Origin: an uncultured Alphaproteobacteria bacterium
Lineage (GTDB): Bacteria; Pseudomonadota; Alphaproteobacteria; Rs-D84
Direction of reading: 5' to 3'
Assembly: GCA_947367055.1 (NCBI GenBank)
Contig: CANBCI010000003.1
Coordinates: 92,713-156,712, forward strand
Length of the DNA: 64,000 bases
Shown here: piece after piece, positions 5,488 to 53,469 of the stretch
Position numbering within the stretch: position 1 is the first letter of the stretch
Layout: the number at the start of each line of letters is the position of its first letter
Program-made: the position numbers and the translations under genes
The notes under the pieces: model-generated
What the model was told of the DNA's origin: nothing
Database searches by the model: none
The model's input: the letters and a program-made list of their open reading frames with translations, nothing else

Positions 5488-5516
5488 TTGACACTTGAAA
5501 AATTACGGTCTATACC
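5488..5516 (+). promoter_or_regulatory. Promoter candidate for the DGR operon
   Basis: TTGACA, a 17-nt spacer, then TATACC, about 30 nt upstream of the avd-like ORF. Confidence 0.45.
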
Positions 5517-5546
5517 ACTAAACATAATATTTCCAAAGTTGCAGAC

Positions 5547-6140
5547 ATGACAAACGACAAATTAAGCCGCAATAAGACCATAAAACTGCCCCGCAAAGTA
5601 CAAAACGAGGGCGGCACTGCAAACACAATTGAAGACCTGTTTTCCGTCCGCCAGGGTTCCGCAACCGGATTTGATGTAAAATTCAACAGCGAAAAGGAAC
5701 GCGCCAAAGCCGACCAAATCGACTGCGAATTGGATCAAATTTCCAAAATATCACCGGAATCAAGCGACCTGCTGGTAATAACGCGAACCAAGAAACTGGG
5801 GGCGTACATTTTTGCAATAACAATCAAGACGCCACAGAAATTTCGAAGCATATACATTCGCCGCCTGCATGATTTGTGCATTGACGCATTGGACTGCATG
5901 TACCACGCAAACGCAATAAAGCAGGATTCACCCGCCAACAAACAGCGCCGCGAACAATATCAGACCGATGCGATTATAAAATTAAAATTACTGGGGTATA
6001 TGGCGTTGCTGGCGGAAAATGCGGCATGCATATTACTGCGCCAGTATAAACAAATTTCCATACTGCTGGGCGACGCGATAAATTTGTGCGCGGCCTGGCG
6101 GAAAAGCGACAATGAAAAATGGGAGGCAAAGAACAAATAA
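5547..6140 (+). CDS. avd: DGR accessory variability determinant (Avd)-like four-helix-bundle protein with a basic N-terminal extension of about 70 aa
   Basis: The C-terminal 125 aa or so have the helical heptad pattern of Avd / 23S-IVS-type four-helix-bundle proteins. The gene lies directly upstream of the TR and RT. Confidence 0.6.
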   Translation: MTNDKLSRNKTIKLPRKVQNEGGTANTIEDLFSVRQGSATGFDVKFNSEKERAKADQIDCELDQISKISPESSDLLVITRTKKLGAYIFAITIKTPQKFRSIYIRRLHDLCIDALDCMYHANAIKQDSPANKQRREQYQTDAIIKLKLLGYMALLAENAACILLRQYKQISILLGDAINLCAAWRKSDNEKWEAKNK

Positions 6141-11544: not shown

Positions 11545-11886
11545 ATGCGCAATGGCGATGATTTAATTCTGGCGCGGCCGGTGGTGCTGAACAAATGGAC
11601 AGGTAGCAATAAGTATAATACGGGACGCGCGGGCCTGATGACACGGACCGATAATCACAATATGATTGTGCTGGCATTTGCAACTGCCTGGCGTTATCGC
11701 ACGGCATATGAAAAACATGGCGATTTAGAATATGCTATAAAGTCCGAACAAACATCATGGCGCAGTCTGTATCACTACCTGAATCTGGCGTATATGCACC
11801 CTGAAAAAGTGAACAGTATTTTATCCGGCAAAGAGCCATGCAGTACGGCGAAAATCTTTGCAATTGCCCCAAAACACCAAATTTAA
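11545..11886 (+). pseudogene. C-terminal remnant of a serine-recombinase-family protein
   Basis: It has only the tail region (LAFATAWRYR...LNLAYMHPEKVNSILSGKEP) and no catalytic domain. It is a diverged paralogue of 20309-20770. Confidence 0.5.
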
Positions 11887-11976
11887 TTGCTTTTTATCGT
11901 GTTTTGTGGTATAGTAAAAGTGTACTAATTTTAGTCGGCATTGTGCCGACTTTTTTATTTTTCAAAAGGATTTACA

Positions 11977-12981
11977 ATGGCATTAAAAGAATACACCACA
12001 ATGACAACCAAAGATTGGTTGCGGGTCGCCAGCACCGCATACAAGGCATATGTAAAAACAAGAACAGGAAACAATCAAGGCACATCAGATGACGAAGAAA
12101 AATGCGATGGCATAATTCAGGTTGGCGGCTATACCCGTTCCGATGGCGCAAAAGTTGGTGCATATGAAAGAATTTGCCCATATCATTATCAAGGCGGGAA
12201 ACGTCCAAATGAAGAAAACAAAGAGAAAAAATTTTCTTTAACCACAGGAATTTCTTCAAGTAGTAATGCCAACAGCAATGATGTTATAAAACTGAAAACA
12301 TACTTAAACAAAATGAATTATTACAAACCGGAACCGCGCAGTGAAACAGAAGACAAGTTTCACGGGTATCCGAATGACGCCTTGGTGGATGCGATTAAAA
12401 ACTTTCAAAAAGATAATGGATTGATTGCGACCGGTAAAATATTTCCAGGCGACGCGACTGAATCTGCAATAAACAGTAAATTTGAATCGCACGGCGTGAC
12501 ATTTGAATATCCAGTGAATACAAACAAGAATCAAATCGCAATATTTGATGGCAAATCACTGACATTGTATGAAAATGATAAAAAAATAAAATCATGGGAC
12601 GGAATGTCTGGAAAGCCTGATTATCAAGGCAAAGAAAACCAAGGTTTAAAAAATAAAGGCCCATTACCAGAAGGTACATACGTTGCAAGGCAGTCAAAGA
12701 TACAAAATATAGATCTAAAAAATGCTGCTTTGGGTTCGGCAAGCGCTATCGGCATAAAAGCCGGCGGATGGCCAGGTTCTTATTATTCATGGGGCAAGCA
12801 CAGGGTTTGGCTGGAAGCATCACAAGAAACAAACACATACAATCGAAACAAATTTAGCATACATGGCGGTTGGCGCCCAGGTTCTGCAGGCTGTATTGAT
12901 TTGACCGATGGGATAAATACTTTTATTAAAGAATTAGAAAGTACTGGCAAAGACTTGGTTATTAAAGTAAAATACGAATAA
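11977..12981 (+). CDS. Tlde1/DUF2778-like L,D-transpeptidase-fold toxin with a peptidoglycan-binding domain
   Basis: The PG_binding_1-like segment is DALVDAIKNFQKDNGLIATGKI. The C-terminus has GPLPEGTY and HGGWRPGSAGCID (an H...SxGC catalytic motif). Confidence 0.65.
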   Translation: MALKEYTTMTTKDWLRVASTAYKAYVKTRTGNNQGTSDDEEKCDGIIQVGGYTRSDGAKVGAYERICPYHYQGGKRPNEENKEKKFSLTTGISSSSNANSNDVIKLKTYLNKMNYYKPEPRSETEDKFHGYPNDALVDAIKNFQKDNGLIATGKIFPGDATESAINSKFESHGVTFEYPVNTNKNQIAIFDGKSLTLYENDKKIKSWDGMSGKPDYQGKENQGLKNKGPLPEGTYVARQSKIQNIDLKNAALGSASAIGIKAGGWPGSYYSWGKHRVWLEASQETNTYNRNKFSIHGGWRPGSAGCIDLTDGINTFIKELESTGKDLVIKVKYE

Positions 12982-13346
12982 TGAAACGATGGCAAAAGAT
13001 AATTTTCGGCATATTCTTAGCAATACATGCGTTGATTATGTATGCATGCGTTTATGATTATTATGATGCAATTATCAAAAATTGCGCGGGCTGGGGCCCG
13101 GGCTTTGACTGTCCTTGGGGCAGTGAGGCCATGGGGGTTGCGTGGACAGATCCATATGTATACATCTCCATGCTAAGCAGGGATTTTATGATGTCTATTG
13201 TATTTGTTATGTTCTCAATTCTCGCAGTACATAAAAAGAACTATACAATTGCAATCTGGTTCTTAGCATTACCGTTATTGGTAGGTTTTTGTGCTCATAT
13301 TGCAGAGATACCGCTGTCAGCATCGATTATGTTTACACAGACATAA
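12981..13346 (+). CDS. Multi-pass membrane protein, candidate cognate immunity protein
   Basis: TAATG start/stop overlap with the toxin gene. It has 3-4 hydrophobic helices. Confidence 0.5.
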   Translation: MKRWQKIIFGIFLAIHALIMYACVYDYYDAIIKNCAGWGPGFDCPWGSEAMGVAWTDPYVYISMLSRDFMMSIVFVMFSILAVHKKNYTIAIWFLALPLLVGFCAHIAEIPLSASIMFTQT

Positions 13347-14101
13347 ATTGTCTTATAAATGGTAAAAACAGGTATCGGCATGAAAAAATATGTTCATATT
13401 ATATTGGCATGTGTTGCGGCGATTGCATTTTGTGCTTTTATGATATTTTTTTTGGGATTTGGCTCTTTTTAACCGAGTCGGCAAGATGTGTAGCATCTGG
13501 GAAAATATATTTTACGAATATGGCAGAAGCGAAAACCGTATGGCTGTATTGATGGCTGATATGGATATTTTGGGTGTTTTTGGCTCTTTACTGATATTCG
13601 AAATTCCAATGTTGGAACTGTTTATGCGATATAAATATTGGATAATGTTAATACCTGTTATTGGCTTCATCTTATTTTTGTTTATTGCGCCAATAACTTT
13701 ATGTCCGGTGTAATACGGATGATATTAGAACACATGTTGTTTTAGGCTTTCCACTGCCAAGGCGAAAAAGGCCAATGTATAGAAAGTGGTTTTTATTTGC
13801 CAATTTTTGAAATTTCGCGATATACCGCGGATGAGTTATAAATAAAAAGCCCCGATTGCCCGGGGCCTTGCGCGTTATATGTTTGTATATTTAAAATATA
13901 ACTGATTCCTGGCGGAGGTAGATAATTATACGGTCTATTGCACACAACAACAGGGAATTTAATTCAAAATCTATCTTTTCTATTGATTTTTTAGCCAATT
14001 TTTGATATAATCTTCGTTAAGATAAGCAGGCGATTTTGTCGCCGTTTTTTATTGCTCTGCCCGATGTCGGCGGGGCTTTTTTATTACCCAAAGGAATAAC
14101 C

Positions 14102-14752
14102 ATGAAAAAGTCACACATTGTCATTTCCGACATAACATGCATGAAAGAAAAGTTCTGCATTGCCGGTTTTGACACGTATGAAAAGCGTATGAAACGTCTA
14201 ATGATTGACGGTGGATATTGGGATGCGAATCAAATTCCGGCCACATATTGCGAAATACTTGTTGATAACGAAGAATTCAAGGAGCCACGTGATTACCCAC
14301 ACCGAACCGAAGATGTAAATATAGATTTTGATTCAATTGAAGTTTTGCAAGAATTTGAACCAGGAAAAGATCTGGCAAATGCTTTGCGCGATAGCGTTTC
14401 AAAAGATATCCAGGGCATATTCCATCATCAGGTCAAAGAAGATACCTATGTGCCACAGAAAACCAAATGCCCTTCGTTGGGCGCCATATTGATTCCGGCA
14501 CACAATATTGAATTCTTTACAGAAGACGGCAAATTACGCGCCCGTATTACAGACTATTCCAAACAAACATATGAATTAAAGGTCAGTTGCAAATACCTGC
14601 GTGATATATTCGAAAAAGACAAAGATGTCACAGGTTTGAACAATGCTGTTGCCGCCAGCCAGTATGCCCACTGTCGCATAGGATTGGCACGAAAGTTTCT
14701 TATGCGGGAAAATCATTGCTATTTGATGTTAAACGGGCTATTTTTGTATTGA
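14102..14752 (+). CDS. Hypothetical protein (216 aa)
   Basis: An AAAGGA SD is present. The stop lies 1 nt from the DUF488 start. No family was recognised with confidence. Confidence 0.6.
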   Translation: MKKSHIVISDITCMKEKFCIAGFDTYEKRMKRLMIDGGYWDANQIPATYCEILVDNEEFKEPRDYPHRTEDVNIDFDSIEVLQEFEPGKDLANALRDSVSKDIQGIFHHQVKEDTYVPQKTKCPSLGAILIPAHNIEFFTEDGKLRARITDYSKQTYELKVSCKYLRDIFEKDKDVTGLNNAVAASQYAHCRIGLARKFLMRENHCYLMLNGLFLY

Positions 14753-14753
14753 T

Positions 14754-15179
14754 ATGACAAAGATTTTTACGATTGGTTTTAGTGGTAAAAGTCCTGACGC
14801 GTTTCTGGATGTGCTAAACGCGGTGCGTGTGCGTGCTGTTTGGGACATACGCCTGTGGCGAACAAGCATATACGTGCCATTCTACAGTGGCGACAGTTTG
14901 GCGGGTGTGCTGGGGAAGCGGTACGAATATCACCCAGAATTCGCCCCAAGCACCGAAATCCTTGCCGGTTACAAAGATGGCCGCATAACCTGGCCTGATT
15001 ATGAGCGTATGTACCATGAATTGCTGACCACACGCCATCCGACCGCAGGAATGACACCGGACGCGCTTGACCGCATTTGCCTGCTATGCACTGAAAAATC
15101 CGCCACACAATGCCACCGACGCATTGCTACCGAATACATTGCAGCACAATTTTCTGATATTGAAATTGTGGATTTATAA
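14754..15179 (+). CDS. DUF488-family protein
   Basis: The signature reads IFTIGFSGKS...VWDIRLWRTS...LLCTEKSATQCHRRIATEYI. Confidence 0.8.
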   Translation: MTKIFTIGFSGKSPDAFLDVLNAVRVRAVWDIRLWRTSIYVPFYSGDSLAGVLGKRYEYHPEFAPSTEILAGYKDGRITWPDYERMYHELLTTRHPTAGMTPDALDRICLLCTEKSATQCHRRIATEYIAAQFSDIEIVDL

Positions 15180-16613
15180 TTATCCCCCAAAATCTAGTGT
15201 ACAAGAGCTACTAAAAATCGTTAATGTCTTGCATGCCCTGCTTATTGCTACATAAAAATTCTTACAATCCATTGTTTGTGCATCTAAAACAATCACGTTA
15301 TCAAATTCTAAACCCTTTGTAAGAAGCGTAGAACCAATACACTTACTATGTAAGCTTCGACCTGCTTGGCGTATTTTGTTCTTATATGCATACATTGAAT
15401 CACATATAGACATATCAGATATAGCAGCATCTTTCACTGCTTTTATTATGGCGTTCAATAGTTCCGGGCGCTGATATTTTAATTTAAGTTCATCTTTCAT
15501 GAATTTGACGATATAATGTAACGATTGTTTATCTATGCAATTGTTTTGCAATTTTTCGATGTGGGATTTTAGCAAATTGCATTTTTCTATATCCGATTGA
15601 CTCCTTTTACATTTTAATCCTGTTGCATTAAACCAGTTAGCAATATCTGTTTTATTAAATATGAATGATTCGCAAATTTCTTTAAATAAAGAAAATTGTC
15701 TTTCAGATGTGCAGAGATCATCTAATTTGGCCGATATATTATAAAAATCTCTATCATCAATTGATTCAATTAATTGAAACCGCTGCAACCCCAAAGAATT
15801 ACGTAATTTTTGTCTCTGTTTTATTTGCCTATTATCTATTATCAGTATATTATCATAGGTATTAGCTAGTCTCAAAAGGCTTCTTTTATACAAAGTATCC
15901 TCATAAACACCACCAGATGTTCGTATAAAAGTTATGCCAGGCCTATCTACCGACAAATCTATAATGCTATCTACTTCAATATGTCGTCTAATTTCTTTTA
16001 TGGACTCCCCTAATTCAAGATTGTTGCTATTTGTACTCCTCCACCGCCATGGTATTTCCAACGTTCCTGCCTCATCTGAAAAATCACATAAACACTCATT
16101 AAATTCAACCAGTTGTTCTCTAAATTCAAAAATACCTTGCAGAGGATCGCCTAGTACATGCATTGGAATAAAATCTTTCAGTTTCATTAGCATATTATGC
16201 TGTTTTAACGTACAATCCTGATATTCATCAATAAATATACCTGTATATGTTTTTTTGATTATTCCAATTATTGGTCTCTTTGAAAATAATTCCGTCGCTT
16301 TTTCAATAATAATATCATGAAATCCAACTGCCTTTTGTTCTGGAACTTGATTTGCCATAAATCCTAGAACATATTTTTGAGCATAACCGCATATTGTTTC
16401 AACATTATATGCGGATGGTCGAACTCCTTGTTTTAATAGTTTTGACTTTATTGAAGCCACACCTGCGTGAGTATGCGTTAAAATAAGCTGTTTCCCCTTA
16501 TTGCGTTCATACGTATACTTGATACACTCTGCAATAAATTGCGTTTTTCCATAACCCGCCGGCGCAATCACTTTTGTCTTTAAACCACTTATAAACGTCT
16601 CTATATCTACCAT
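15180..16613 (-). CDS. gajB: UvrD-like superfamily 1 helicase (Gabija GajB-like)
   Basis: It has the APAGYGKT Walker A, FIDEYQD motif II and LTKGLEFDNVIVLD / YVAISRA C-terminal motifs. The start abuts the gajA-like stop. Confidence 0.8.
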   Translation of the reverse strand: MVDIETFISGLKTKVIAPAGYGKTQFIAECIKYTYERNKGKQLILTHTHAGVASIKSKLLKQGVRPSAYNVETICGYAQKYVLGFMANQVPEQKAVGFHDIIIEKATELFSKRPIIGIIKKTYTGIFIDEYQDCTLKQHNMLMKLKDFIPMHVLGDPLQGIFEFREQLVEFNECLCDFSDEAGTLEIPWRWRSTNSNNLELGESIKEIRRHIEVDSIIDLSVDRPGITFIRTSGGVYEDTLYKRSLLRLANTYDNILIIDNRQIKQRQKLRNSLGLQRFQLIESIDDRDFYNISAKLDDLCTSERQFSLFKEICESFIFNKTDIANWFNATGLKCKRSQSDIEKCNLLKSHIEKLQNNCIDKQSLHYIVKFMKDELKLKYQRPELLNAIIKAVKDAAISDMSICDSMYAYKNKIRQAGRSLHSKCIGSTLLTKGLEFDNVIVLDAQTMDCKNFYVAISRACKTLTIFSSSCTLDFGG

Positions 16614-18251
16614 TTATGCGTCAATCCATTCTGATAACGCGTTCCAAACTCTTTTCATATGACAGTCAGAAACCGCCCCCCAATTCGCGAATATAGTATT
16701 TCCCAACGTTTCAGCCTTATCAATTCTTTTGTACCATTCTCTATCTTTGTTAATTGACAATTTTGCAATTCTAATTCTATCTCTCTCAATATCAACTACA
16801 TTTCCCAAGGAAGAAGTATCTTCTTTTGAAATTATGCCTTCTATTACATCCCAAGGCAAATCTTTAAAAATTTGATGTTCTATATCATTACCGTCTTCAG
16901 AATCAAAAACCTGTATCCCATTGTCCCTCAATGCTTGTTTCTGTCCATTTACATCGGCTCTATCAGAATCTAAAAAAACACACACATCAAAGCCTAAGTC
17001 CTTTATTTTCTTAGCTCTATCAATTGCGCTACTTCCTTCTCCTACAATATAAAAACAATCTTTAGATGCCATTGACGGTAAATTTTGTTTTACACGCCAA
17101 GAATCCATAGCTCTGCATATTCCTATTTCTGTTTTTCCTTCACAAACAATGATTTTATTACAAAAAAATCCTTCAGGGTTTGCTCTAACAATGGCCTGCC
17201 AATTATCTTTTGAAGGAATATTTTTAATATACACATTTTCTTTGTCATCGAACTTTTTTACTAAATATAAATCATTTGAATTAAGTTCTACAATTGCATC
17301 TCGCGAATGAGTAGTCAGAAAAATCTGCCCCTTGTTTTCATTTTTTAACGATGATACTATTTGTCTAATTCTATCAGGTTCCAAACCTTGCTCTATTTCA
17401 TCTATCAACACAATTCCACCACGTTTTGCCAGAGCTAATTGTATCGCCATAGAAATTATACGTTTTGAGCCCTTACCCATTAAACGCAATGGGATATTAT
17501 TATCGTTATTTAAACATACCTTGTTATCTTTGATAACAATATCCTTAAAATCAATTGATGTTTTCATTGCACCAATATTTAATCCCAATATACCTACATA
17601 TTTTGTTACTTCATTTATTGCACTTTCTGTTTGTGGAAACCCCGCGCTATCTATATTTATTTTTACTTCACGCAGCCTATCAATAATTATATTACGCTCA
17701 TCTGTTTCTGACGAAAAATTCTTCAACAATTGATAAAGAGGCGACCCCTTACTCCAAGAAAAATGCTTATCAACATAGTCAGATATAAAAGAACAGTTTA
17801 ATTTTGATCTGTCTGTTGCGGATATCGCTTTGGGCTCCTGACGCCCAGTCACCATTTCCCATTTTGGTTCCAATGTTTTATCCACAGTTAATCTAATAGT
17901 ATATACATCTTCCAACTCCGGGTTATCTATTACTTCATCTGTAATTTCACCCGTACTTTTATTATATTGTCTTTTGTATAAACCAAATTTATCTTCTGTT
18001 TGCAATATATCCGGAATATTTGCTAATGTAGCCTCTATTTTTATTGGTTGAGTAACATCTGCATTAAAGAAGTCTGTATCATAAAATTGCAAAATATGGC
18101 TGGGGTATAAAACATAATAAATAGAATCCAAAATTGTTGTTTTTCCGCTATCTCCTCTACCAATTAAGCAAATAAAATTTTTATCAAACGTTTCTGAAAG
18201 ACATTTGATTCCACGAAAATTTTCTATATCCAACTTTAATATATTACTCAA
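16614..18251 (-). CDS. gajA: OLD-family ATPase plus Toprim nuclease (Gabija GajA-like)
   Basis: The N-terminus has GRGDSGKTT, followed by VLIDEIEQGLEP. The C-terminal Toprim has IIVCEGKTE and FLDSDR. Confidence 0.8.
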   Translation of the reverse strand: MSNILKLDIENFRGIKCLSETFDKNFICLIGRGDSGKTTILDSIYYVLYPSHILQFYDTDFFNADVTQPIKIEATLANIPDILQTEDKFGLYKRQYNKSTGEITDEVIDNPELEDVYTIRLTVDKTLEPKWEMVTGRQEPKAISATDRSKLNCSFISDYVDKHFSWSKGSPLYQLLKNFSSETDERNIIIDRLREVKINIDSAGFPQTESAINEVTKYVGILGLNIGAMKTSIDFKDIVIKDNKVCLNNDNNIPLRLMGKGSKRIISMAIQLALAKRGGIVLIDEIEQGLEPDRIRQIVSSLKNENKGQIFLTTHSRDAIVELNSNDLYLVKKFDDKENVYIKNIPSKDNWQAIVRANPEGFFCNKIIVCEGKTEIGICRAMDSWRVKQNLPSMASKDCFYIVGEGSSAIDRAKKIKDLGFDVCVFLDSDRADVNGQKQALRDNGIQVFDSEDGNDIEHQIFKDLPWDVIEGIISKEDTSSLGNVVDIERDRIRIAKLSINKDREWYKRIDKAETLGNTIFANWGAVSDCHMKRVWNALSEWIDA

Positions 18252-18370
18252 GCTGTTACCTCTATTAAATTACTAATAATTTTACAAAGACAATATATAG
18301 AATTCAAGCACATTAATTTTAAGTAGATTACATTATTTACATAGCAGCAAAATCCCCATAAACAATCAAC

Positions 18371-18399
18371 TTGATTTACTTTATTTATCACGGTACACT
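18371..18399 (+). promoter_or_regulatory. Promoter candidate for leader RNA copy 1
   Basis: TTGATT, a 17-nt spacer, then TACACT. Confidence 0.45.
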
Positions 18400-18405
18400 T
18401 TTCTC

Positions 18406-18588
18406 TTGAACCCAATGGGAATTGGGTTCGGGGCTGTGGTGGCCCGCAGACGCGGCATTTGTCGTTAAAATCCCCCGACTTTGGTCGGGGAGCCGTTCGC
18501 TATAAAACAGGGCTTGCCCGAAGGCTGCGGAGCATTCGTTTGCTGACACCAACTCCCCGGCCGTCAATTCCGTTGACGGTCTTTGATT
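18406..18588 (+). ncRNA. Structured leader RNA, family copy 1 (unassigned)
   Basis: It has a 9-bp P1 hairpin at 18408-18429, conserved blocks shared with 63757-63995 and 26860-27065, and an intrinsic terminator at 18561-18588. Confidence 0.6.
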
Positions 18589-18608
18589 TATAAACAAGGG
18601 GAATTTCT

Positions 18609-18839
18609 ATGATTATTACTACAGATTTAGATCTCTCAGTAACTTTATTCGTTGTATGCATTACCGTGATTATAGGTGGCGTGATTAAGCGTGCAACAGC
18701 AAATAGTAAAGCCAAAGCCTATGCTGAATATGTAGAAGAATGCAAAAAGTCCAAAAAGGAACCACTGGATTATGTTTCGTGGGAACGATTGGAAGCCGCC
18801 GCCCCACGATCATATGCAGACGATGACGATTGGGAATAA
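18609..18839 (+). CDS. Small single-pass membrane protein with an acidic tail
   Basis: A GGGGAA SD is present. It has one TM helix (VTLFVVCITVIIGGVI) and a DDDDWE C-terminus. Confidence 0.5.
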   Translation: MIITTDLDLSVTLFVVCITVIIGGVIKRATANSKAKAYAEYVEECKKSKKEPLDYVSWERLEAAAPRSYADDDDWE

Positions 18840-18841
18840 AT

Positions 18842-19525
18842 ATGAATATTACAGAATCCGTTATTTCTGCATTTATGAATCTGAAACAAAAGCATCGGTT
18901 CTTTGTATCCGAGGCGGATTTTCAAGCATCTTTTACATGGGAACTGGCGCAAGTATTTCATGACCGACCAGATGTTAAAATATACCGTGAATTTCCTGTG
19001 CGCGTATATGACACCCAGTGGCGTACAATTTATATCGACATTTTGATTGTTGCCGATGGTCAAAGGTTTCCCATTGAGTTAAAATACAAAACCAACACAA
19101 TAGACTCTGACGAATTATATGAAGACACTGGCATCCCGATCAGAGACATATTAAAACCACAAGGTGCCAAAGACGAAGGCAGTTATGACTGTTGGAAAGA
19201 CATATCACGCATAGAGAAATTAGTTAATATCGGTTTTGCCCACAGTGGTATCTTTATATGCATTGCAAACGACAAATATTATTGGAACGGCAATTGCGGC
19301 GAAAGTACTCTTGGCTACGCATTTCGTATGAACTCGGGTCATAAATACGGTGGTGAATATAACTGGAATTTGGCAAATTGTGCAAACATAGAAAAGTTGC
19401 TAAAAGCGCGTCCAAATTTACATATCATGAATGACTATGAATTTGCCTGGCAGGACTTCTACGAGATGCGGGCACAAAATGGTTTGTTTAAGTTTTTATT
19501 AATCAAAATCCCATCAACGGAGTAG
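18842..19525 (+). CDS. PD-(D/E)xK nuclease-fold candidate
   Basis: YIDILIVADGQRFPIELKYK fits the D...ExK motif. Confidence 0.55.
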   Translation: MNITESVISAFMNLKQKHRFFVSEADFQASFTWELAQVFHDRPDVKIYREFPVRVYDTQWRTIYIDILIVADGQRFPIELKYKTNTIDSDELYEDTGIPIRDILKPQGAKDEGSYDCWKDISRIEKLVNIGFAHSGIFICIANDKYYWNGNCGESTLGYAFRMNSGHKYGGEYNWNLANCANIEKLLKARPNLHIMNDYEFAWQDFYEMRAQNGLFKFLLIKIPSTE

Positions 19526-19530
19526 CAAAA

Positions 19531-19827
19531 ATGACGAAAATATCGTTTATTATATTAGGCTTATTAAGTTTAACGGCATGTGCTACGGAAACAAGAGCTG
19601 TAGAAGTTTAGCACATAGATCCAGAATGGGAAATCTATAGTATTACATACAATGTAAAGCTGATCTTGAACAATTGTCAATATGACGACGACTGGGCCGA
19701 TGAGCAGAGTTACATCTGGTCTGGAAACTTTGAAAACACACATAAATCATTCTCGTTTACAACAGCCATGGGGGGGCAAAGGACTGTCCCTGTGTATTCT
19801 GGTGTTTGTTCAGTAAAAAAATTCTAA
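19531..19827 (+). pseudogene. Small lipoprotein gene interrupted by one in-frame TAG
   Basis: It has a signal peptide and lipobox (ILGLLSLTAC). The TAG is at 19609-19611, and the frame stays open for 71 more codons. Confidence 0.45.
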
Positions 19828-19890
19828 AAAGAACGCTGTTTGTCCTGGGAAAAAGATTGCGTTATTGAACAAAAAGATGATCGATATTCA

Positions 19891-19914
19891 AAAACGCCCC
19901 CAAAGGGGCGTTTT
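19891..19914 (+). terminator. Intrinsic terminator
   Basis: AAAACGCCCC-CAAA-GGGGCGTTTT. Confidence 0.6.
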
Positions 19915-20015
19915 ATTCATTGTTGCATCGCATAGTTTATGCACTAGGTTAATGCATCAACCTGGTCTTTGTATTTGCTGTTTGGAAATCCCAACAGCTC
20001 TTTCTTGAAATCTGA

Positions 20016-20260
20016 CTACCATGGTGCTTCCTTTTGTGGGAATTTCAATGTGCTGTTTTCTATCAAAGCGCTACACCCTATCAGACGCGAATACAGCGTA
20101 GAGCCATACCATTCGTTTAACTTGGCATGTTGGGATTCTGATGACGCATCCACAGATTTTTGCGGATCGTCTATTATAATCCAGTCCGCCCCACGCCCAG
20201 TCAACGTTCCACCGATATATGTAGCCATACGCCCGCCACTGTGGACGCAATGAGGCACAT
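20016..20260 (-). pseudogene. Phage terminase large-subunit fragment
   Basis: GGTLTGRGADWIIIDDPQK...LNEWYGSTLYSRL resembles the Walker-B region of terminase/GTA-type large subunits. Only about 80 aa remain. Confidence 0.5.
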
Positions 20261-20308
20261 AAACATTCAAAACGCACCATACGCAGAAAAAAAATCTTTG
20301 TTCAATCA

Positions 20309-20770
20309 TTGGTTGATAAAGTTATATACTCGCAGGAAAAACTGATATTTTATCTGATACCAGACGTGGCAAAATTACAACCATTCGCGGCCGAGAACTT
20401 TATAAATCAGAAATCTGATCCGATGGAATTTACGGTCAGCGATAGTCGCATCGTTATAGCCGTCCCGATTGTCCTGCGAAAATATGTGCATACAGTATTT
20501 GATAAAACCAAGAACGGCGTCTTGACCATCACCGATAACAACCACCTAATCCTTAAAGCCTTCGCAACAGCATTGCGGTATCGAGAGATGTATGAAGAAT
20601 GTGGCGACACCGATAAAATCATCGCCATGTAACATACATCCCCACGCCAGTTTTACCGCCACCTTGACCTAGCATATATGAATCCGGACAAAATCAACGA
20701 AATTCTGTCCGGACGATTAAAAATTAATGTTAATGATTTGTTCCATATTGCTACTGTAAATTATTTATAA
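20309..20770 (+). pseudogene. C-terminal remnant of a serine-recombinase-family protein with an in-frame TAA
   Basis: LKAFATALRYREMYEE...(TAA at 20630-20632)...LDLAYMNPDKINEILSGR. There is no catalytic domain. Confidence 0.5.
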
Positions 20771-21835
20771 TTATTTTGTGTTGTTTTCTTGTTCTACTTG
20801 CGCACTAGCAATTGGGGTACTGACGCCATATACTTTTCTTTTATTCAAAAAAACTTCTCTCAACACTTTGTTTTCGCGTTTTATTGCAGTATCTAAATCC
20901 ACAGAATGGTCTGGAGCTTTAGAAAAATATTCTGATAATATTTGCCACTTCAAATCGGATTTGGCGTTTTCTATATCTTCTTTATTTTCAAAATCAATTT
21001 CACGTCCCAATACGATACTAACACTTTGTTCATTCATATGCGTGATTAACGCCTCTATCGCTGATATTTTTCGTTTCTCCCCATTAATTTTTTCATACAC
21101 ATTAAAAAGGGCATTAAATATTTTATACAAAACGAACAATATCCCTACAAACAGTAAGGCATTTGGGATTTTAACAACAACTATCGAAAGTGCCGCATAC
21201 ACCCAATTCCAACCATTTGGCACAAGACTTGCATTGATAAGGTTCAGCTGCTCTGAAAAAAGACTTAAAGTTTCAGAGATATTGCAAAGAGAAAAACAGC
21301 CAAGAATTACCGCCAACACAATTGCTCCAAACATACACCGTCCATAAAAACGCATGTTTTTAACGGACTCTTCTTTGAAATCTTTGACGCTATTTATAAT
21401 TTTTATATTTTTTTCGATCTTCGCCTTGTGCTTTTGATATTTTTCATCCAATAGCTTCGTTTTGTTAGCTATTTCTTCTTCTCGCTTTTGAGCGGTCTCT
21501 TCCAACTCAACAATCCTATTTTCTAATTGTATTTTCTTATGATTCAAAGACACCGCAGGATATTCACCCGTATCGTCTTGGAGGCCAATTTTTGTTTCCA
21601 ACTGATCCTGTGCTGTTTTCAACTGATTAATATTATTAATCAGCGCATTCTCCTCCGATTTATATCTGGTCAAATTCTGTGTGTTTACAGAAATATCTGA
21701 CTGTAAGGAAGTCAATGTATCTTGCGCTTGCGATATTTCATTTTGTAGTGTCTGTTTTTCCGTTTCCAATTGTTTATTTTCTTCAATAAGTTGTTGCCTA
21801 CTTAATGCTAATGCGGAATTTGTTATGGGTGCCAT
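20771..21835 (-). CDS. Coiled-coil protein with two central TM helices
   Basis: The N-terminal 190 aa or so are heptad-rich (Q/E/L/N). The TM segments are FGAIVLAVILGCFSL and VYAALSIVVVKIPNALLFVGILFVLY. Confidence 0.6.
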   Translation of the reverse strand: MAPITNSALALSRQQLIEENKQLETEKQTLQNEISQAQDTLTSLQSDISVNTQNLTRYKSEENALINNINQLKTAQDQLETKIGLQDDTGEYPAVSLNHKKIQLENRIVELEETAQKREEEIANKTKLLDEKYQKHKAKIEKNIKIINSVKDFKEESVKNMRFYGRCMFGAIVLAVILGCFSLCNISETLSLFSEQLNLINASLVPNGWNWVYAALSIVVVKIPNALLFVGILFVLYKIFNALFNVYEKINGEKRKISAIEALITHMNEQSVSIVLGREIDFENKEDIENAKSDLKWQILSEYFSKAPDHSVDLDTAIKRENKVLREVFLNKRKVYGVSTPIASAQVEQENNTK

Positions 21836-22064
21836 TATTTAGTCCTTTTATTTTATCACGTTTTATGTAGGATTTTTTTAACAGTTTTCAAGGGATAATA
21901 CGCAAAACTGGCATCCTTATTTTAGGCAAGGTATGCTGCGCGAGGAATTATGGTGTGATTTGGTGCGAAGGCGAGTATACACCGGTACCGTTGCTGATAA
22001 AAATCCTCGGATTCCGGAGCAAAAGAAACATCCCGCGGGATTACCGTGGGATGCGTCACATTCC

Positions 22065-22154
22065 TGGCGGATGGGGAGGGATTCGAACCCCCGGAAGCAT
22101 TGCTGCTTCAACGGTTTTCAAGACCGCCGCAATCGACCGCTCTGCCACCCATCC
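22065..22154 (-). tRNA. tRNA-Ser (UGA)
   Basis: A 90-nt cloverleaf folded by hand. It has a long variable arm, anticodon loop CUUGAAA and an encoded CCA. Confidence 0.95.
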
Positions 22155-26859: not shown

Positions 26860-27065
26860 AATGTGGATTTGGAACTTAGAAAATCCCTTATACCTTCGGT
26901 GCGTGAAATTCACGCATCGTTAAAAAAATGGCATCAAATTTGATGCCCCCCGACGCATAGGTCGGGTTGTCGCGGTTATAAAACAGGTCTTATCCAAAAC
27001 CCGCGAGGTCATTAAGGTATATGATTTTTCTAACATCCCGGCCACCACATAATTGGTGGTTTTTC
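26860..27065 (+). ncRNA. Structured leader RNA, family copy 3 (5' half diverged)
   Basis: It shares the CCCGAC/GTCGGG hairpin, the TTATAAAACAGG block, the CCCGGCC segment and the terminator architecture with copies 1 and 2. The 5' boundary is uncertain. Confidence 0.45.
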
Positions 27066-49916: not shown

Positions 49917-50747
49917 ATGAATAAAGCGAAACAAAATTCGGATAAAAAGATAGCCCTGGTCGCAGGTGCGCTTGATTTGCCATTTTTCACACGCGACGCA
50001 TTACGGCGTGCGGGCTGGGATGTGTTTGTGGTGGGACTAAAAAACTTTTATGACCCGCGACTGGAACCGGACATGGTGGTGCGCCTGGGGGGCGGTGGTC
50101 GTGCGGTGCGTGAATTTCGCCGCCGCGGGATAAACAAACTGACCTTTGTCGGGGCGTTGGGTCATGTAAATTTATCGGACATACGGCCGGATTTATGGTC
50201 GATATTCGCACTGATTAGCATTATGAAACATCAACGGGGGTATGATTCAATGGCGGTTGCATTAAACAAAGTTTTGGAAAAGCGTGGATTATCGGTTGTC
50301 GCCGCCCAGGATTTGGCGCCGGAATTGGCGTTTGAAACGGCGGGGGTAAAGACCAAGACGCGCCCGAGTGCGCGTGACCGGCGCGACATTGAACGCGCGA
50401 TTGAGGTATCACACACAATCGGCGCGGCGGACATAGGCGCATCGGTTGTCGTTGACAAGCAGGTCTTTGCCGTAGAGGCCGCCGAAGGCACCGCCAAAAT
50501 GTTGGAACGGGTTGTTGCGATGCGAAAAAATTACAAGAAATCATCGGGCGTGTTTGCCAAGATGACCAAACCCGGCCAAGATTTGCGGATTGACATTCCG
50601 GCGATTGGCGTTGATACGGTGAACGCGGTTGCGGACGCGCACCTAAAAGGGATTGTGGTCAACGCCAAGACCTGCTTTGTCGTGGACAAGGCAAACGTGA
50701 TACAGCAGGCCAACCGCCGCGGCATATTTATAATCGCCATGGACTAG
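49917..50747 (+). CDS. lpxI: UDP-2,3-diacylglucosamine pyrophosphatase LpxI (DUF1009)
   Basis: KIALVAGALDLP ... GASVVVDKQVFAVEAAEGTAKMLERV. Confidence 0.8.
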   Translation: MNKAKQNSDKKIALVAGALDLPFFTRDALRRAGWDVFVVGLKNFYDPRLEPDMVVRLGGGGRAVREFRRRGINKLTFVGALGHVNLSDIRPDLWSIFALISIMKHQRGYDSMAVALNKVLEKRGLSVVAAQDLAPELAFETAGVKTKTRPSARDRRDIERAIEVSHTIGAADIGASVVVDKQVFAVEAAEGTAKMLERVVAMRKNYKKSSGVFAKMTKPGQDLRIDIPAIGVDTVNAVADAHLKGIVVNAKTCFVVDKANVIQQANRRGIFIIAMD

Positions 50748-51016
50748 GGCATTTTTGCCATAACCATTTCGATAAATTCAGGCCATGTCGTGTTTGTTGC
50801 ATGCAACATTCTATCCACTGTTTCAAATGTCGGAAACCGCGGGCGACCGGTGCGGGACGCATAACGCTTTGACGGGTTGAACGCGGTTAAAGTCAATCCC
50901 GTTATACGCGCCAGACCGCATGCCGTCAGTCCATTATTCGCCGCGAGTTCATCAATCGCCGCCCACAACGCGCCATGAAATTCACGCAGAGCCCCGTCTA
51001 TTTTATTTAGCCACAT
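50744..51016 (-). CDS. Small HTH DNA-binding protein (paralogue of 5071-5322)
   Basis: LTACGLARITGLTLTAFNPSKRY. Confidence 0.55.
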   Translation of the reverse strand: MWLNKIDGALREFHGALWAAIDELAANNGLTACGLARITGLTLTAFNPSKRYASRTGRPRFPTFETVDRMLHATNTTWPEFIEMVMAKMP

Positions 51017-51356
51017 TTAGACGCCGTATTATATTTAATATCATTTTCTTGTCCGCGTCATTCATTTGGCACAGACACCGGATTATATCCCGCATTGTTT
51101 GGTCATACACGGCGTTGTACCGTTCAACCTCGCCAAACAATGTGCTAACCGGCATTTCCATTGCCTGCGCGATTTGAAACAAACGCGACGCAGATATTCG
51201 ATTACCGGCGGTTTCATATTTTTGTAATTGCTGAAAAGTGACACCGATTTTACGCGCCAAATCCTTTTGTCGCATGCCAAATTTATTGCGCCAATTTGCA
51301 ACAATTTGGCCGATATAGACATCGATTTCACTTGGCTTAAATGGCCGACCAGACAT
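51003..51356 (-). CDS. XRE-family transcriptional regulator
   Basis: GMRQKDLARKIGVTFQQLQKYETAGNRISASRL. An AGGGGAG SD is present. Confidence 0.8.
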   Translation of the reverse strand: MSGRPFKPSEIDVYIGQIVANWRNKFGMRQKDLARKIGVTFQQLQKYETAGNRISASRLFQIAQAMEMPVSTLFGEVERYNAVYDQTMRDIIRCLCQMNDADKKMILNIIRRLNVAK

Positions 51357-51392
51357 GTTCTTATCTCCCCTGTTTTTTATTAAAAACAAAAA

Positions 51393-51415
51393 CCACTGGA
51401 AATTATTTCAAGTGG
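51393..51415. promoter_or_regulatory. Imperfect 23-bp palindrome (operator candidate)
   Basis: CCACTgGAAAt-t-aTTTCaAGTGG lies between the XRE gene start and the first array module. Confidence 0.35.
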
Positions 51416-52972
51416 CTGGAGGATAGAAACAATACGAAAGTCGATTGCCCTGTTTATTTAAATATATCACAGGCCTCCAGCCATTTCGACTGGACAAGAC
51501 AATGCCCACGTGGGCTTCTTTCGTATCTTGAGGTTTCTATGCCCCATTTGCAACAGGAGTAAATACCAATATGCGTTCCGAATTATATCAGTTGCAGGAC
51601 ATATTTCCACAAAAAAATGCGTGCTACTAATATAAAAACCCATCAAATAACAGACGGGCTGGAGGTTAGTATTTGCACGCTTACTTGCTCACCGTCTATT
51701 CAATATATTCAACGGCCTCCAACCCTGTCGGATTGGGTTTTCGCCCACGTGGGCGATAAGCGCGCGGCATACTAATTCCGCATAATGGAACACCCATTAC
51801 AATTAGTACTATATCCTATATTTATAAATTATGCAAACAATTATTACGGGAATTAAATACACAATTTCGCATTATTAAATAATTAAAATGGTTGGAGTTA
51901 AAATGATACTCAAACGTTATCCCGGCTTATTCAATATATTCGCCGACTCCAACCAACACTTGGTGGAGCATTTTACGCCTGCAGGCGGTTCTAGTGAGCG
52001 AGATTTCAGCTCGCACTTTTTTGCAACAGGGGGATGCCCATTACAATCATATTGTATCACATACATTTATAATTGCAACCGCCAAAATCTCTAGAAGACC
52101 GGGGCGGGAGTTACAGAACACATTACCAGAATGTGCCGATTGAAATTCAACCGGTCTCCCAACCCCGGATAGGGTTGAAAGTTTTACGCCTTTGCAGACA
52201 ACTGGTAATCGAGTTCTGTATTCTCGAGCAACGGAACTCCCGTTGCAACAAGTACTATATCCTATTTTTTATCATATTGCAAACAATTATTACGGGAATT
52301 AAATACACAATTTCGCATTATTAAATAATTAAAATGGTTGGGTGTTCGTAACAATACAAGCATTGCCCGCTTTATTCAATATATTCAGCGGTCCCCAACC
52401 AAATGGCTGGAAGTTAGTAACTGCACAGTAGCATGCAAGTGATTTATTTGGTTATTCATCACCATCCAGCCAGATTATATTTTACCGTACACCACGCATA
52501 CTTGCAAACAATTATTACAGGAATTAAATACACAATTTCGCATTATTAAAAATTAAAATGGTTGGAGCTGAAAAAGATAGTAAAACTTATCCCGGCTTAT
52601 TCGATATATTCGCCGGCTCCAACCAAATGGCTGGAAGTTAGTAACTGCACATACCATGCAAGTGATTTATTTGGTTATTCATCACCATCCAGCCAGATTA
52701 TATTTTACCGTACACCACGCATACTTGCAAACAATTATTACGGGAATTCTGGTATAATATTCGCATAAATAAATTTGTTGAAAATAACAAAACCTTATTT
52801 TATAATATACTCAACGTGATGAAAAATCACGCCGGGGTGTCGAAACCCTTAGTTCATTGATGTCCGTGGGGACATAAAAAACTCCACACCATATTTTAAT
52901 AATGGTTGGAGAATGGTGGGATAACCAATACACCATACTATTTTCATGAGCTATAGTTTCGAATCTCCAACC
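51414..52972 (+). repeat. Array of nine 65-70-nt stem-closed modules (candidate structured sRNA genes)
   Basis: Modules: A 51414-51482, B 51656-51725, C 51890-51954, D 52099-52168, E 52336-52400, F 52405-52471, G 52560-52624, H 52629-52694, I 52904-52972. Each is closed by a 7-12-bp GGYTGGRG.../...CYCCARCC-type stem. Confidence 0.6.
51994..52022 (+). terminator. Intrinsic terminator inside the array (after module C)
   Basis: A GCGAG-ATTTCAG-CTCGC stem-loop followed by TTTTTT. Confidence 0.5.
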
Positions 52973-53093
52973 ACCTTGTTTTTTTCCCGGTGGTTATTAT
53001 TTTAAGTAAGTATGTTCCGGTGCGGGGTGATTTGTTTCTCATCTCCCAAACAAAAAGAAAATGGGTCGCATCGCCACCGGAACACCCGGTTTC

Positions 53094-53123
53094 AAAAATC
53101 CCCGCAAAACTGCGGGGATTTTT
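53094..53123 (-). terminator. Intrinsic terminator of the FKBP gene
   Basis: AAAAATCCCCGC-AAAA-CTGCGGGGATTTTT. Confidence 0.7.
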
Positions 53124-53139
53124 AAGTCTAATTTCATCC

Positions 53140-53469
53140 TTATTGTCGAATGATGTCGTTCACCGTCACCTGAAACACAACGGCACGGCCCGCCATTTCC
53201 GGATAATAATTCTGGGGGAATGTAATGTTGACACTGCGTACTTCGCCAACCTCGGCCCCGATCAGTTGTTCTTCGAATCCGGGAACGAACGTGCCACTGC
53301 CCAGCGTCAACGGATAATCATGCCCCGTGCCGCCTGGAAACTGAACCCCGTCCATATATCCCGCAAAATCAATTACAACCGTGTCGCCAACCTGCGCGCC
53401 GGCATGACTGTCGCACGCCGCCACACCAAACACACCGCACAGGCCCAATACCGCCATTATCTTTTTCAT
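53140..53469 (-). CDS. FKBP-type peptidyl-prolyl isomerase lipoprotein
   Basis: It has a lipobox (LGLCGVFGVAAC) and the GDTVVIDFAGYMDGVQF...GSGTFVPGFEEQLIG PPIase core. Confidence 0.8.
   Translation of the reverse strand: MKKIMAVLGLCGVFGVAACDSHAGAQVGDTVVIDFAGYMDGVQFPGGTGHDYPLTLGSGTFVPGFEEQLIGAEVGEVRSVNITFPQNYYPEMAGRAVVFQVTVNDIIRQ

Follow-up and report, generated by a model that had tools for sequence, protein, structure and literature searches.

A 1.6-kb region of the 64-kb window analysed here (the whole stretch of DNA from an uncultured alphaproteobacterium) is best explained as a head-to-tail array of six transcription units on the minus strand and one on the plus strand, each a copy of the same leader RNA. 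We consider it likely that these units are tandem, mostly orphan copies of a structured cis-acting leader or attenuator whose architecture resembles that of the Brt RNAs of Bartonella. The anatomy of the leader, its covariation, its strand, its association with genes and its two-state energetics were observed directly and carry this reading. An anonymous repeat array thereby becomes a defined RNA family that has no match in Rfam, counts at least 137 copies in at least 120 genome blocks, and is described by a testable 3D-like model with five predicted helices and two predicted pseudoknots (PK1 and PK2).

Nine modules and their strand

The array contains nine stem-closed modules of 65–70 nt each (A–I, Table 1), confined to 51414–52972 of the window. 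A covariance model (R1; 68 positions with 19 base pairs), trained on the window modules together with a few relatives, matches all nine sites with 37–70 bits (E 1e-6 to 3e-15 over the whole window), well above chance, and every module that a first-pass annotation of this DNA had described is present at its place. The other R1 matches in the window at E ≤ 1 are the reverse strands of the modules (15.7–17.1 bits) and a weak one at 26960–27043 (15.1 bits, E 0.4). Single-sequence folds of the modules beat shuffled controls with z-scores of −2.5 to −5 on the correct strand; such shuffles ignore phylogeny, which is accounted for by the slid-partner and swapped-partner controls described below. The conserved loop TTATTCAATATATTC occurs four times at up to two mismatches, versus 0.46 expected, and the loop of the second helix (P2) differs in modules D, F, H and I.

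The family had been left unassigned, and no Rfam family matches the modules: across 51300–53150, none of the 4227 models of Rfam 15 reached its gathering score, and hits at E ≤ 10 were terminator look-alikes only, of at most 25 bits. The size of the modules and their 7–9-bp closing stem suggested a tRNA or tRNA-like element, of which ARAGORN and the Rfam tRNA model find none in the region. The description of the region as free of open reading frames (ORFs) is approximate, with mechanical ORFs of up to 83 aa present, and the substitution pattern is that of RNA pairing.

Modules A–H fold more stably on the minus strand, with examples in Table 1, and module I marginally better on the plus strand. 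R1 gives modules A–H 37–70 bits on the minus strand and at most 17.1 bits on the plus strand, leaving module I as the sole plus-strand module. Fold energies and R1 scores therefore overturn the strand called by the first-pass annotation for eight of the nine modules, A–H being read on the minus strand, toward a gene for an XRE-family helix-turn-helix (HTH) protein. A plus-strand terminator placed after module C at 51994–52022 is really the minus-strand hairpin 51998–52014 of unit C′, the loop of which pairs with the junction strand of module C; the terminator assigned after module I was correct. G·U pairs are frequent in homologues (GU 35 and AU 21 at pair 42–78 of a 68-sequence alignment, for example), and because they become A·C mismatches on the opposite strand, the structure must be read on one strand, as an RNA would be.

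Homologues in gut alphaproteobacteria

Homologues were recruited by a pattern scan of species-representative genomes, with GGTTGGRG, the P2 loop and YCCARCC fixed in the pattern. All homologue counts given here are among the matches listed, namely at least 120 blocks and, from an R1 search of these blocks, at least 137 copies. Nearly all of these further copies come from gut alphaproteobacterial metagenome-assembled genomes (MAGs), some of which contribute several contigs; each MAG has at least 3–7 copies on different contigs. The MAG names in the listed blocks are Candidatus Enterousia, 'Alphaproteobacteria bacterium RGIG...' and 'uncultured Rickettsiales UMGS...', and we refer to their leaders as RF32 leaders. 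The window is itself a member of this gut MAG group, since it is 86–91% identical over several kb to one of them (L077) and 65–75% identical to others. At 5900–5966 of L077, the closest relative, there is a leader copy where the window (~62000) has none, amid flanking genes that are 86–91% identical.

Outside the gut alphaproteobacterial group, the matches listed include a single one, in a Gammaproteobacteria MAG, SZUA-140 (L113); it is probably a chance match because R1 finds nothing there at E ≤ 0.001. A phage origin of the element was rejected, as the pattern is found in only 3 of 2.9 million viral contigs and there too precedes a secreted-protein gene. On one such IMG/VR contig (L135, 12104–13164), the leader stands 42 nt before the gene of a 316-aa secreted-type protein, as in cellular genomes. 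In open-access full text, no paper combining Enterousia and riboswitch was found.

Architecture and covariation of the leader

The 65–70-nt modules had been taken as the units of the array, whereas the real unit is a leader of ~190 nt from transcription start to U-tract, with a promoter, a 5′ domain engaged in two pseudoknots, and a terminator. One constant plan is seen in the oriented flanks of the 137 copies. In its 5′ part, the P-a hairpin is followed by P-b (of the form GGGG-YGU-NNNNN-A-CCC), a PK2 segment just 3′ of P-b, P-c and an A-rich stretch; the 3′ part consists of an anti-P1 element (CUCCAAC), a P1–P2–P3 three-way junction, an intrinsic terminator, the ribosome-binding site (RBS) and the start codon. 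The P1 arms of RF32 leaders are GGUUGGAGG/CCUCCAACC. P2 is a 5-bp stem with a highly conserved 15-nt AU-rich loop, GAAUAUAUUGAAUAA, that includes two GAAUA repeats.

Covariation was measured on alignments fitted to the covariance model (A2, with 68 sequences, and A3) and on a structure-blind MAFFT alignment (A5). In A2, which holds the first 68 of the 137 copies, 97.5% of helix cells pair, versus 30–49% with slid 3′ partners. Double changes occur in 16 of the 19 helix pairs, among them all pairs of P2 and P3, on which the recruiting pattern placed no constraint. The compensatory stem changes reported from the nine modules are thus borne out on homologues from other genomes.

PK1 joins the P-b loop to the junction strand J3/1. 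In the structure-blind A5, 95.3% of its cells are paired and all five pairs have double changes (for example, CG 30, AU 21, GC 7 and UA 4 at one of them). Sequence by sequence, at least five contiguous Watson–Crick pairs are found in 127 of 135 copies, with a mean of 5.4 for own partners and 3.9 when J3/1 is swapped among copies, over 69 distinct combinations of loop and J3/1. PK2 pairs the segment 3′ of P-b with the P3 loop, at a mean of 6.7 bp for own and 4.3 for swapped partners; its partner lies 10–15 nt 3′ of that of PK1 in 111/135 copies, and 125 distinct P3 loops occur. Covariation in the helices, PK1 and PK2 supports a conserved, structured aptamer-like domain, and covariation across related genomes, for which the first-pass annotation had proposed a check, is strong in all helices and both pseudoknots.

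Gene context, expression platform and proposed mechanism

An ORF preceded by a Shine–Dalgarno sequence follows 120 of the 137 copies, at a median distance of 51 nt from module end to start codon (34–75 nt in 104 of the 120). A sigma-70-like promoter lies 60–200 nt upstream in 93/130 copies, versus 14/130 in a control region. Downstream, a hairpin with a U-tract is found within 7 nt of the module end in 128/135 copies, and in 110 of those 128 the 5′ strand of this terminator reuses 3–5 nt (AACC) of the P1 3′ arm. A complement to the P1 5′ arm occurs upstream over at least 6 nt in 124/135 copies and over at least 8 nt in 92 of these; in at least one variant leader (L028), anti-P1 follows P1, the P1 5′ arm being GGCAGGAGG and anti-P1 CUUCUGCC. 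Because of their placement in gene orientation, the short distance to the start codon and the terminator overlapping P1, we read the anatomy of these leaders as that of a cis-acting attenuator or riboswitch.

The two pairings of the P1 5′ arm were compared by folding 127 leaders with this arm constrained to pair either upstream (anti-P1) or downstream (P1). The two states are near-isoenergetic, with a median of −1.7 kcal/mol favouring anti-P1 plus terminator and a difference within 3 kcal/mol in 69/127 leaders. In the anti-P1 state, AACC, the last four nucleotides of P1, pairs with the 3′ strand of the terminator over 3–4 nt in 105/127 leaders; in the P1 state, none of its nucleotides pairs with that strand in 110/127. 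A riboswitch is expected to carry an expression platform in the 5′ untranslated region (UTR) with mutually exclusive terminator and antiterminator pairings, and the leaders have one.

In the mechanism that we propose, the P1 5′ arm (GGUUGGAGG) would have two candidate partners, anti-P1 and the P1 3′ arm. Its pairing with anti-P1 would leave the P1 3′ arm free, so that the full terminator could form and transcription would stop; this would be the default OFF state, yielding a short RNA. Once the junction and the two pseudoknots are folded, P1 would sequester AACC, the terminator would be crippled and read-through into the gene would follow (ON), while P1 would also mask an anti-Shine–Dalgarno-like CCUCC. 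Candidates for what might tip the balance are small molecules, second messengers, haem (which has been suggested for Brt1), proteins and other RNAs; a small-molecule ligand of the leader is possible. Within the window, unit A′ alone would gate a gene, the operon of the XRE gene and a 90-aa ORF, and the units upstream of it would be orphan duplicates. A short leader peptide was rejected: the candidate ATG ACT GAA TAT ATC GAA TAA in one locus (L005) is in a frame not kept in other copies.

This layout is close to that of P1–antiterminator riboswitches such as those with purine-type three-way-junction aptamers, which also have a covarying aptamer-like domain in the 5′ UTR, competition between P1 and terminator, and several copies per genome. 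The leaders differ in having an additional anti-P1 strand and in that two pseudoknots connect their junction with a separate 5′ domain. In tandem riboswitch arrangements, serial units of aptamer and terminator precede one gene and read-through needs each of them open; here, by contrast, each unit has its own promoter, and several are without parts of the aptamer or the platform.

Signal-peptide-like N-termini are found in 56 of the 120 downstream ORFs; another 54 are small (≤135 aa) and have no signal peptide, and 10 are of other kinds. The secreted proteins include those with the Listeria–Bacteroides repeat (Flg_new), Cys-rich proteins and Gly_rich_2. The largest cluster of small proteins (29 members) has a weak match to HTH_31 only (E 7e-4, below the Pfam cut-off); a second cluster (10 members) and several singletons appear XRE-type HTH-like by eye. 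A link between the RNA and XRE genes as a general rule was rejected, given that only 5 of the 137 copies precede the XRE type of the window and ~40 more precede other small HTH-like proteins. The regulon is coherent as one of cell surface plus regulators, and no biosynthetic or transport operon is found among the 120 ORFs. Cyclic di-GMP-I and -II riboswitches lie upstream of adhesin and pilus genes, and their regulon of surface proteins and regulators may resemble that of the leaders. The leaders represent a new orphan riboswitch candidate, with a regulon of cell-surface proteins and regulators, not metabolism.

Comparison with Bartonella Brt RNAs

Brt1–9 are abundant terminated RNAs of 194–203 nt, each directly preceding an XRE 'Trp' gene that is poorly transcribed; they were described as genus-specific and always trp-linked, with a predicted 3′ terminator or riboswitch-like stem-loop (PMC5387305). 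Brt1 has been shown by experiment to attenuate trp1: deletion of its 3′ stem-loop de-represses this gene (PMC5387305, PMC8070961). The window XRE protein (117 aa) and the HTH protein encoded downstream of the pBGR3 Brt (118 aa) share 37% identity over 78 aa (E 1e-17). We located the pBGR3 copy via the published BrtR primer and assembled 17 distinct Brt copies from five plasmids and the chromosomes of B. henselae, B. tribocorum and B. elizabethae. Their consensus fold is a three-way junction with P1 UCCGGGAG/CUCCCGGA, a long P2 and a P3 of CUGA-7 nt-UCAG, directly preceded by a palindromic anti-P1, CCCGGAA. PK1 (6–8 bp) and PK2 (6–7 bp) occur at fixed positions in 12 of the 17 copies, with 9–10 covarying sequences each; own and swapped means are 6.4 and 4.7 bp for PK1 and 5.8 and 3.6 bp for PK2, and P1 and P2 covary in B. 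henselae Brt. This model of a junction with a double pseudoknot is new for Brt, of which PMC5387305 and PMC8070961 describe only the predicted 3′ stem-loop.

Both families thus comprise multicopy RNAs of ~190–200 nt, each with its own promoter, found immediately upstream of a homologous XRE gene (here unit A′). They share P-b/PK1, PK2, anti-P1, the three-way junction and a 3′ attenuator hairpin, and both form tandem arrays with orphan or chimeric copies. The leader–XRE arrangement is the same in L002, L005 and L006, though at large it is limited to the five copies noted above. The differences lie in P1 (UCCGGGAG/CUCCCGGA in Brt, GGUUGGAGG/CCUCCAACC in RF32 leaders), in P2 (a long, conserved, interrupted helix in Brt, a 5-bp stem with a 15-nt AU-rich loop in RF32 leaders), in the Brt 3′ hairpin, which has no obvious U-tract, and in the genes served, RF32 leaders mostly preceding other small HTH-like and secreted or surface proteins.

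Membership of Brt by sequence was rejected. R1 has no match on pBGR3 at E ≤ 1, and a model of the full leader (R2), searched without filters against five plasmid loci of Bartonella, gave a best E of 0.47, for a partial P-b region. The published membership criterion is nucleotide homology by BLAST; the Brt primers show no match to the window sequence by eye, and pBGR3 gives no Rfam hit. Since the covariance models do not link the two families, we call the window RNAs Brt-like in architecture and probable function, not Brt by sequence, and the connection relies on architecture, covariation and the homologous downstream protein. In B. tribocorum (L140), orphan Brt copies stand between Brt–trp pairs at 8969–9116, 11756–11906 and 12734–12881; their 5′ domain mismatches J3/1 and the P3 loop (PK1 and PK2 of only 4 bp), a chimeric state that parallels the window orphans.

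More tentatively, the RF32/Enterousia leaders and Brt could be two branches of one undescribed class of signal-sensing, riboswitch-like RNAs that would respond to a host-derived or second-messenger signal and switch surface proteins and small HTH regulators, with an interchangeable P2 setting ligand or partner specificity and orphans serving as buffers or decoys. Haem is the only experimental hint to the signal of such a class. If this were true, the class would combine a three-way junction, clamped by two pseudoknots, with a switch made of anti-P1, P1 and terminator, and would let host-associated alphaproteobacteria turn whole batteries of such genes on or off by sensing the signal directly. 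Through the comparison, commensals of the gut (Candidatus Enterousia and RF32-type alphaproteobacterial MAGs) are connected with the Brt/Trp circuit, by which Bartonella controls its BadA adhesin and biofilm formation and whose Brt RNAs were thought genus-specific; the covariation model points Brt researchers to concrete sites for mutants, namely PK1, PK2, anti-P1 and P2.

Weighing the alternatives

Several points weigh against a switching cis-acting leader. Transcription, 3′ ends, switching, its direction and the ligand are what we infer from the sequences. The overlap of P1 and terminator amounts to merely 3–5 nt, and the gene context names no ligand because no biosynthetic or transport operon lies downstream. 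Lower haem raised Brt1 read-through (PMC8070961), which fits a ligand that turns the switch OFF better than one that stabilises P1 and turns it ON. Just one of the seven window units (A′) precedes a gene; C′, E′ and G′ are without a canonical terminator and F′ and H′ without the whole 5′ domain, and part of the array may for this reason be decaying duplicates. The CM-derived alignments A2 and A3 lean to the model structure, as A5 does not. Finally, the conservation of P1 and the P2 loop, the copy numbers and the taxonomic range are biased, because the recruiting pattern fixed P1 and the P2 loop and the counts are of the matches listed.

A different effector acting on the same leader is a possibility that we hold open with some doubt. 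The RNA would then be a docking site for a protein (an antiterminator or the encoded HTH-like proteins) or for another RNA, or would act as an RNA thermometer. Such an effector would suit a regulon made up of surface proteins and regulators instead of metabolic genes; the conserved AU-rich 15-nt loop with its two GAAUA repeats looks like a macromolecule-binding site, and on a common scaffold RF32 leaders and Brt have entirely different versions of P2, the best-conserved element. However, known protein-dependent attenuators are less elaborate than a three-way junction that two pseudoknots lock, although this is no proof, and no candidate RNA-binding protein is encoded consistently beside the element. 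In B. henselae, moreover, trp transcription did not respond to changes of temperature (27–37 °C) or pH (PMC8070961).

The first-pass annotation suggested that the array could be a battery of trans-acting small RNAs (sRNAs), in which the P2 loop would be the seed that pairs with target mRNAs. Structured RNA genes, pairing under selection, a multicopy battery and the absence of an Rfam match all stood; trans action through a shared seed loop fits less well, and we regard it as unlikely. Multicopy tandem sRNA families are exemplified by LhrC1–5 of Listeria, Qrr1–5 of Vibrio and the alphaproteobacterial 'cuckoo' CcsR, and they resemble the array in placing homologous small units with a conserved single-stranded loop side by side in one intergenic region. 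These sRNAs act in trans via seeds that are C-rich or defined, and they do not occupy leader positions, whereas here the norm is a cis leader, then terminator, RBS and ORF. Six of the seven window units are orphans with their own promoters, several with terminators; the downstream ORF is missing in 17/137 relatives; the loop GAAUAUAUUGAAUAA is highly conserved; and for Brt1 a trans role in addition to the cis one has been hypothesised (PMC5387305, PMC8070961), such as the orphan copies of the window may also have. Opposed to these observations are the 120/137 copies at a short, fixed distance before a start codon, in gene orientation and with a P1-overlapping terminator, as well as the wrong strand that was assumed for eight of the nine modules. 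Loop conservation was partly imposed by the search pattern, and Brt as well as modules D, F, H and I have a different loop. Of 121 occurrences of the motif in ~0.9 Mb of related sequence, 116 lie within modules, no search having been aimed at complementary targets.

A dispersed mobile or selfish repeat akin to miniature inverted-repeat transposable elements or repetitive extragenic palindromes, with stems that are mere inverted repeats, is very improbable: the copies are indeed multiple and dispersed (at least 3–7 per MAG, on different contigs), and their content differs between strains with the same XRE protein, but their orientation and spacing to the start codon are fixed, each has its own promoter and terminator, the abundant G·U pairs work on one strand only, long-range pseudoknot covariation would be meaningless for a DNA inverted repeat, and the genome-wide copies inside genes that the annotation had named as the mark of such a repeat find no counterpart in the 64-kb window, where no copy lies inside a gene and none lies elsewhere.

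Units of the array and neighbouring genes

The cis-acting leader is seen most completely in units A′, B′ and I, which have clear terminators; promoter, P-b/PK1 and anti-P1 are present in A′, B′, C′, D′ and I (Table 1). The promoters of the six minus-strand units combine a TTGCAA-type −35 with a TAnnnT −10 element. The ATG of the XRE gene comes 26 nt after the end of unit A′, on the same strand, and this gene is the only one in the window directly downstream of the array. Unit C′ has a U-rich tail without a canonical terminator hairpin, and no PK2 of at least 5 bp was found in it. Units F′–E′ and H′–G′ form a 223-nt duplication that is 98% identical (repeat D3), and their junction modules directly follow the promoter, without the 5′ pseudoknot domain. 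C′, E′ and G′ are each followed by a conserved spacer, GCGAAATTGTGTATTTAATTCC (repeat D1), and the next promoter, without a terminator hairpin between. The orphan window units probably yield short transcripts only.

Table 1. Coordinates of the array's modules, leader units and adjacent genes in the window
Feature	Position	Strand	Details
Module A (junction of unit A′)	51414–51482	minus	
Module B (junction of unit B′)	51657–51725 (junction 51656–51726)	minus	fold: minus −20.2, plus −14.3 kcal/mol
Module C (junction of unit C′)	51890–51954	minus	
Module D (junction of unit D′)	52100–52167	minus	different P2; fold: minus −31.0, plus −24.6 kcal/mol
Module E (E′)	52336–52400	minus	
Module F (F′)	52405–52471	minus	4 nt from E′
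Module G (G′)	52560–52624	minus	
Module H (H′)	52629–52694	minus	fold: minus −20.3, plus −16.0 kcal/mol
Module I (junction of unit I)	52904–52972	plus	
XRE-family HTH gene, 117 aa	51003–51356	minus	Pfam HTH_3, E 1.4e-11; RBS GGGGAG and ATG at 51354–51370
90-aa ORF	50744–51016	minus	overlaps end (stop codon) of XRE gene; XRE + 90-aa pair also in L002 and L005
Unit A′, complete leader upstream of XRE gene	51382–51609	minus	R1 68.2 bits, R2 72.9 bits
A′ promoter	51582–51609	minus	TGGAAA-16-TATAAT, 10/12
A′ P-b	51530–51545	minus	
A′ P-c	51504–51515	minus	
A′ anti-P1	51488–51493	minus	
A′ terminator and U-tract	51382–51415	minus	
A′ pseudoknots			PK1 AUAGAAA/UUUCUAU; PK2 ACGAAAG/CUUUCGU (segment/P3 loop); read from sequence
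Unit B′, complete orphan leader	51632–51837	minus	R1 52.9 bits, R2 58.9 bits
B′ promoter	51808–51837	minus	
B′ P-a	51783–51799	minus	
B′ P-b	51764–51781	minus	
B′ P-c	51742–51755	minus	
B′ anti-P1	51730–51739	minus	
B′ terminator	51632–51660	minus	scan: 51660–51637
B′ pseudoknots			PK1 UUAGUAU/AUACUAA; PK2 CGCUUA/UAAGCG
Unit C′, orphan leader	51870–52078	minus	R1 60.7 bits, R2 66.5 bits
C′ promoter	52051–52078	minus	
C′ P-b	51998–52014	minus	
C′ P-c	51976–51987	minus	
C′ anti-P1	51960–51969	minus	
C′ pseudoknot			PK1 P-b loop UGAAAU / J3/1 AUUUUA
Unit D′, divergent orphan leader	52077–52282	minus	R1 37 bits, R2 28.4 bits
D′ promoter	52254–52282	minus	
D′ P-a	52228–52246	minus	
D′ P-b	52209–52227	minus	
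D′ anti-P1	52172–52181	minus	
D′ weak terminator-like hairpin	52077–52107	minus	
D′ pseudoknots			PK1 UACAGA/UCUGUA; PK2 UACCAG/CUGGUA
Unit F′–E′	52318–52507	minus	R1 62.5 and 69.9 bits
F′–E′ promoter	52479–52507	minus	
Unit H′–G′	52541–52730	minus	R1 58.1 and 58.8 bits
H′–G′ promoter	52702–52730	minus	
Unit I, complete orphan leader, only plus-strand copy	52778–53003	plus	R1 64.5 bits, R2 79.8 bits
I promoter	52778–52806	plus	TTGAAA-17-TATAAT, 11/12
I P-a	52813–52833	plus	
I P-b	52834–52848	plus	
I P-c	52862–52873	plus	
I anti-P1	52882–52892	plus	
I terminator	52969–53003	plus	AACC in common with P1
I pseudoknots			PK1 UCGAAA/UUUCGA; PK2 8 bp with one G·U, read by eye
Conserved spacer (repeat family D1)	51849–51870, 52295–52316, 52520–52541	minus	same sequence in L002 (~5497–5535)

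The XRE protein is found in metagenome assemblies only, with homologues that are 84% (L002), 81% (L005) and 51% (L006–L009) identical; in all of these loci, the XRE gene is preceded, on its own strand, by modules that have promoter, leader and terminator. No Pfam or PHROG family matches the 90-aa ORF, which is kept in three loci and looks by eye like a second HTH domain.

Duplication and recombination among repeated leaders offer the best account of how the array arose. Relative to the window (50744–52730), the cassette of XRE gene, 90-aa ORF and leaders is inverted in L002 (5336–6613) between flanks that remain syntenic, with LpxI at one end and unit I plus the FKBP gene at the other, which suggests recombination between oppositely oriented leader copies. 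Unit I is in place beside the FKBP gene in L002, where only three leaders lie upstream of the XRE gene. An identical XRE protein (P0007) is encoded in L006 and L007–L009 with different leader sets upstream (compared over 5560–5904 of L006 and 5612–5892 of L007–L009); leader content therefore turns over at strain level.

In extended form, GCGAAATTGTGTATTTAATTCC(C/T)GTAATAATTGTTTGCA, the D1 spacer lies just upstream of the −35 hexamer of successive units and takes it in; possible roles are that of an XRE-protein operator or of an UP element. A perfect palindrome, GCCCACGTGGGC, is present twice, at 51504–51515 and 51743–51754, as the P-c hairpins of units A′ and B′. Beyond unit I, A-runs and T-runs enclose a perfect inverted repeat of 13 bp (53094–53123), which is a bidirectional terminator between this unit and the convergent FKBP gene and explains weak Rfam 'leader' hits. 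At some distance from the array, 12001–22000 has a low GC content of 0.34–0.39, versus 0.44–0.53 elsewhere, and ends beside a tRNA-Ser gene (22065–22154); this stretch may be a genomic island or prophage.

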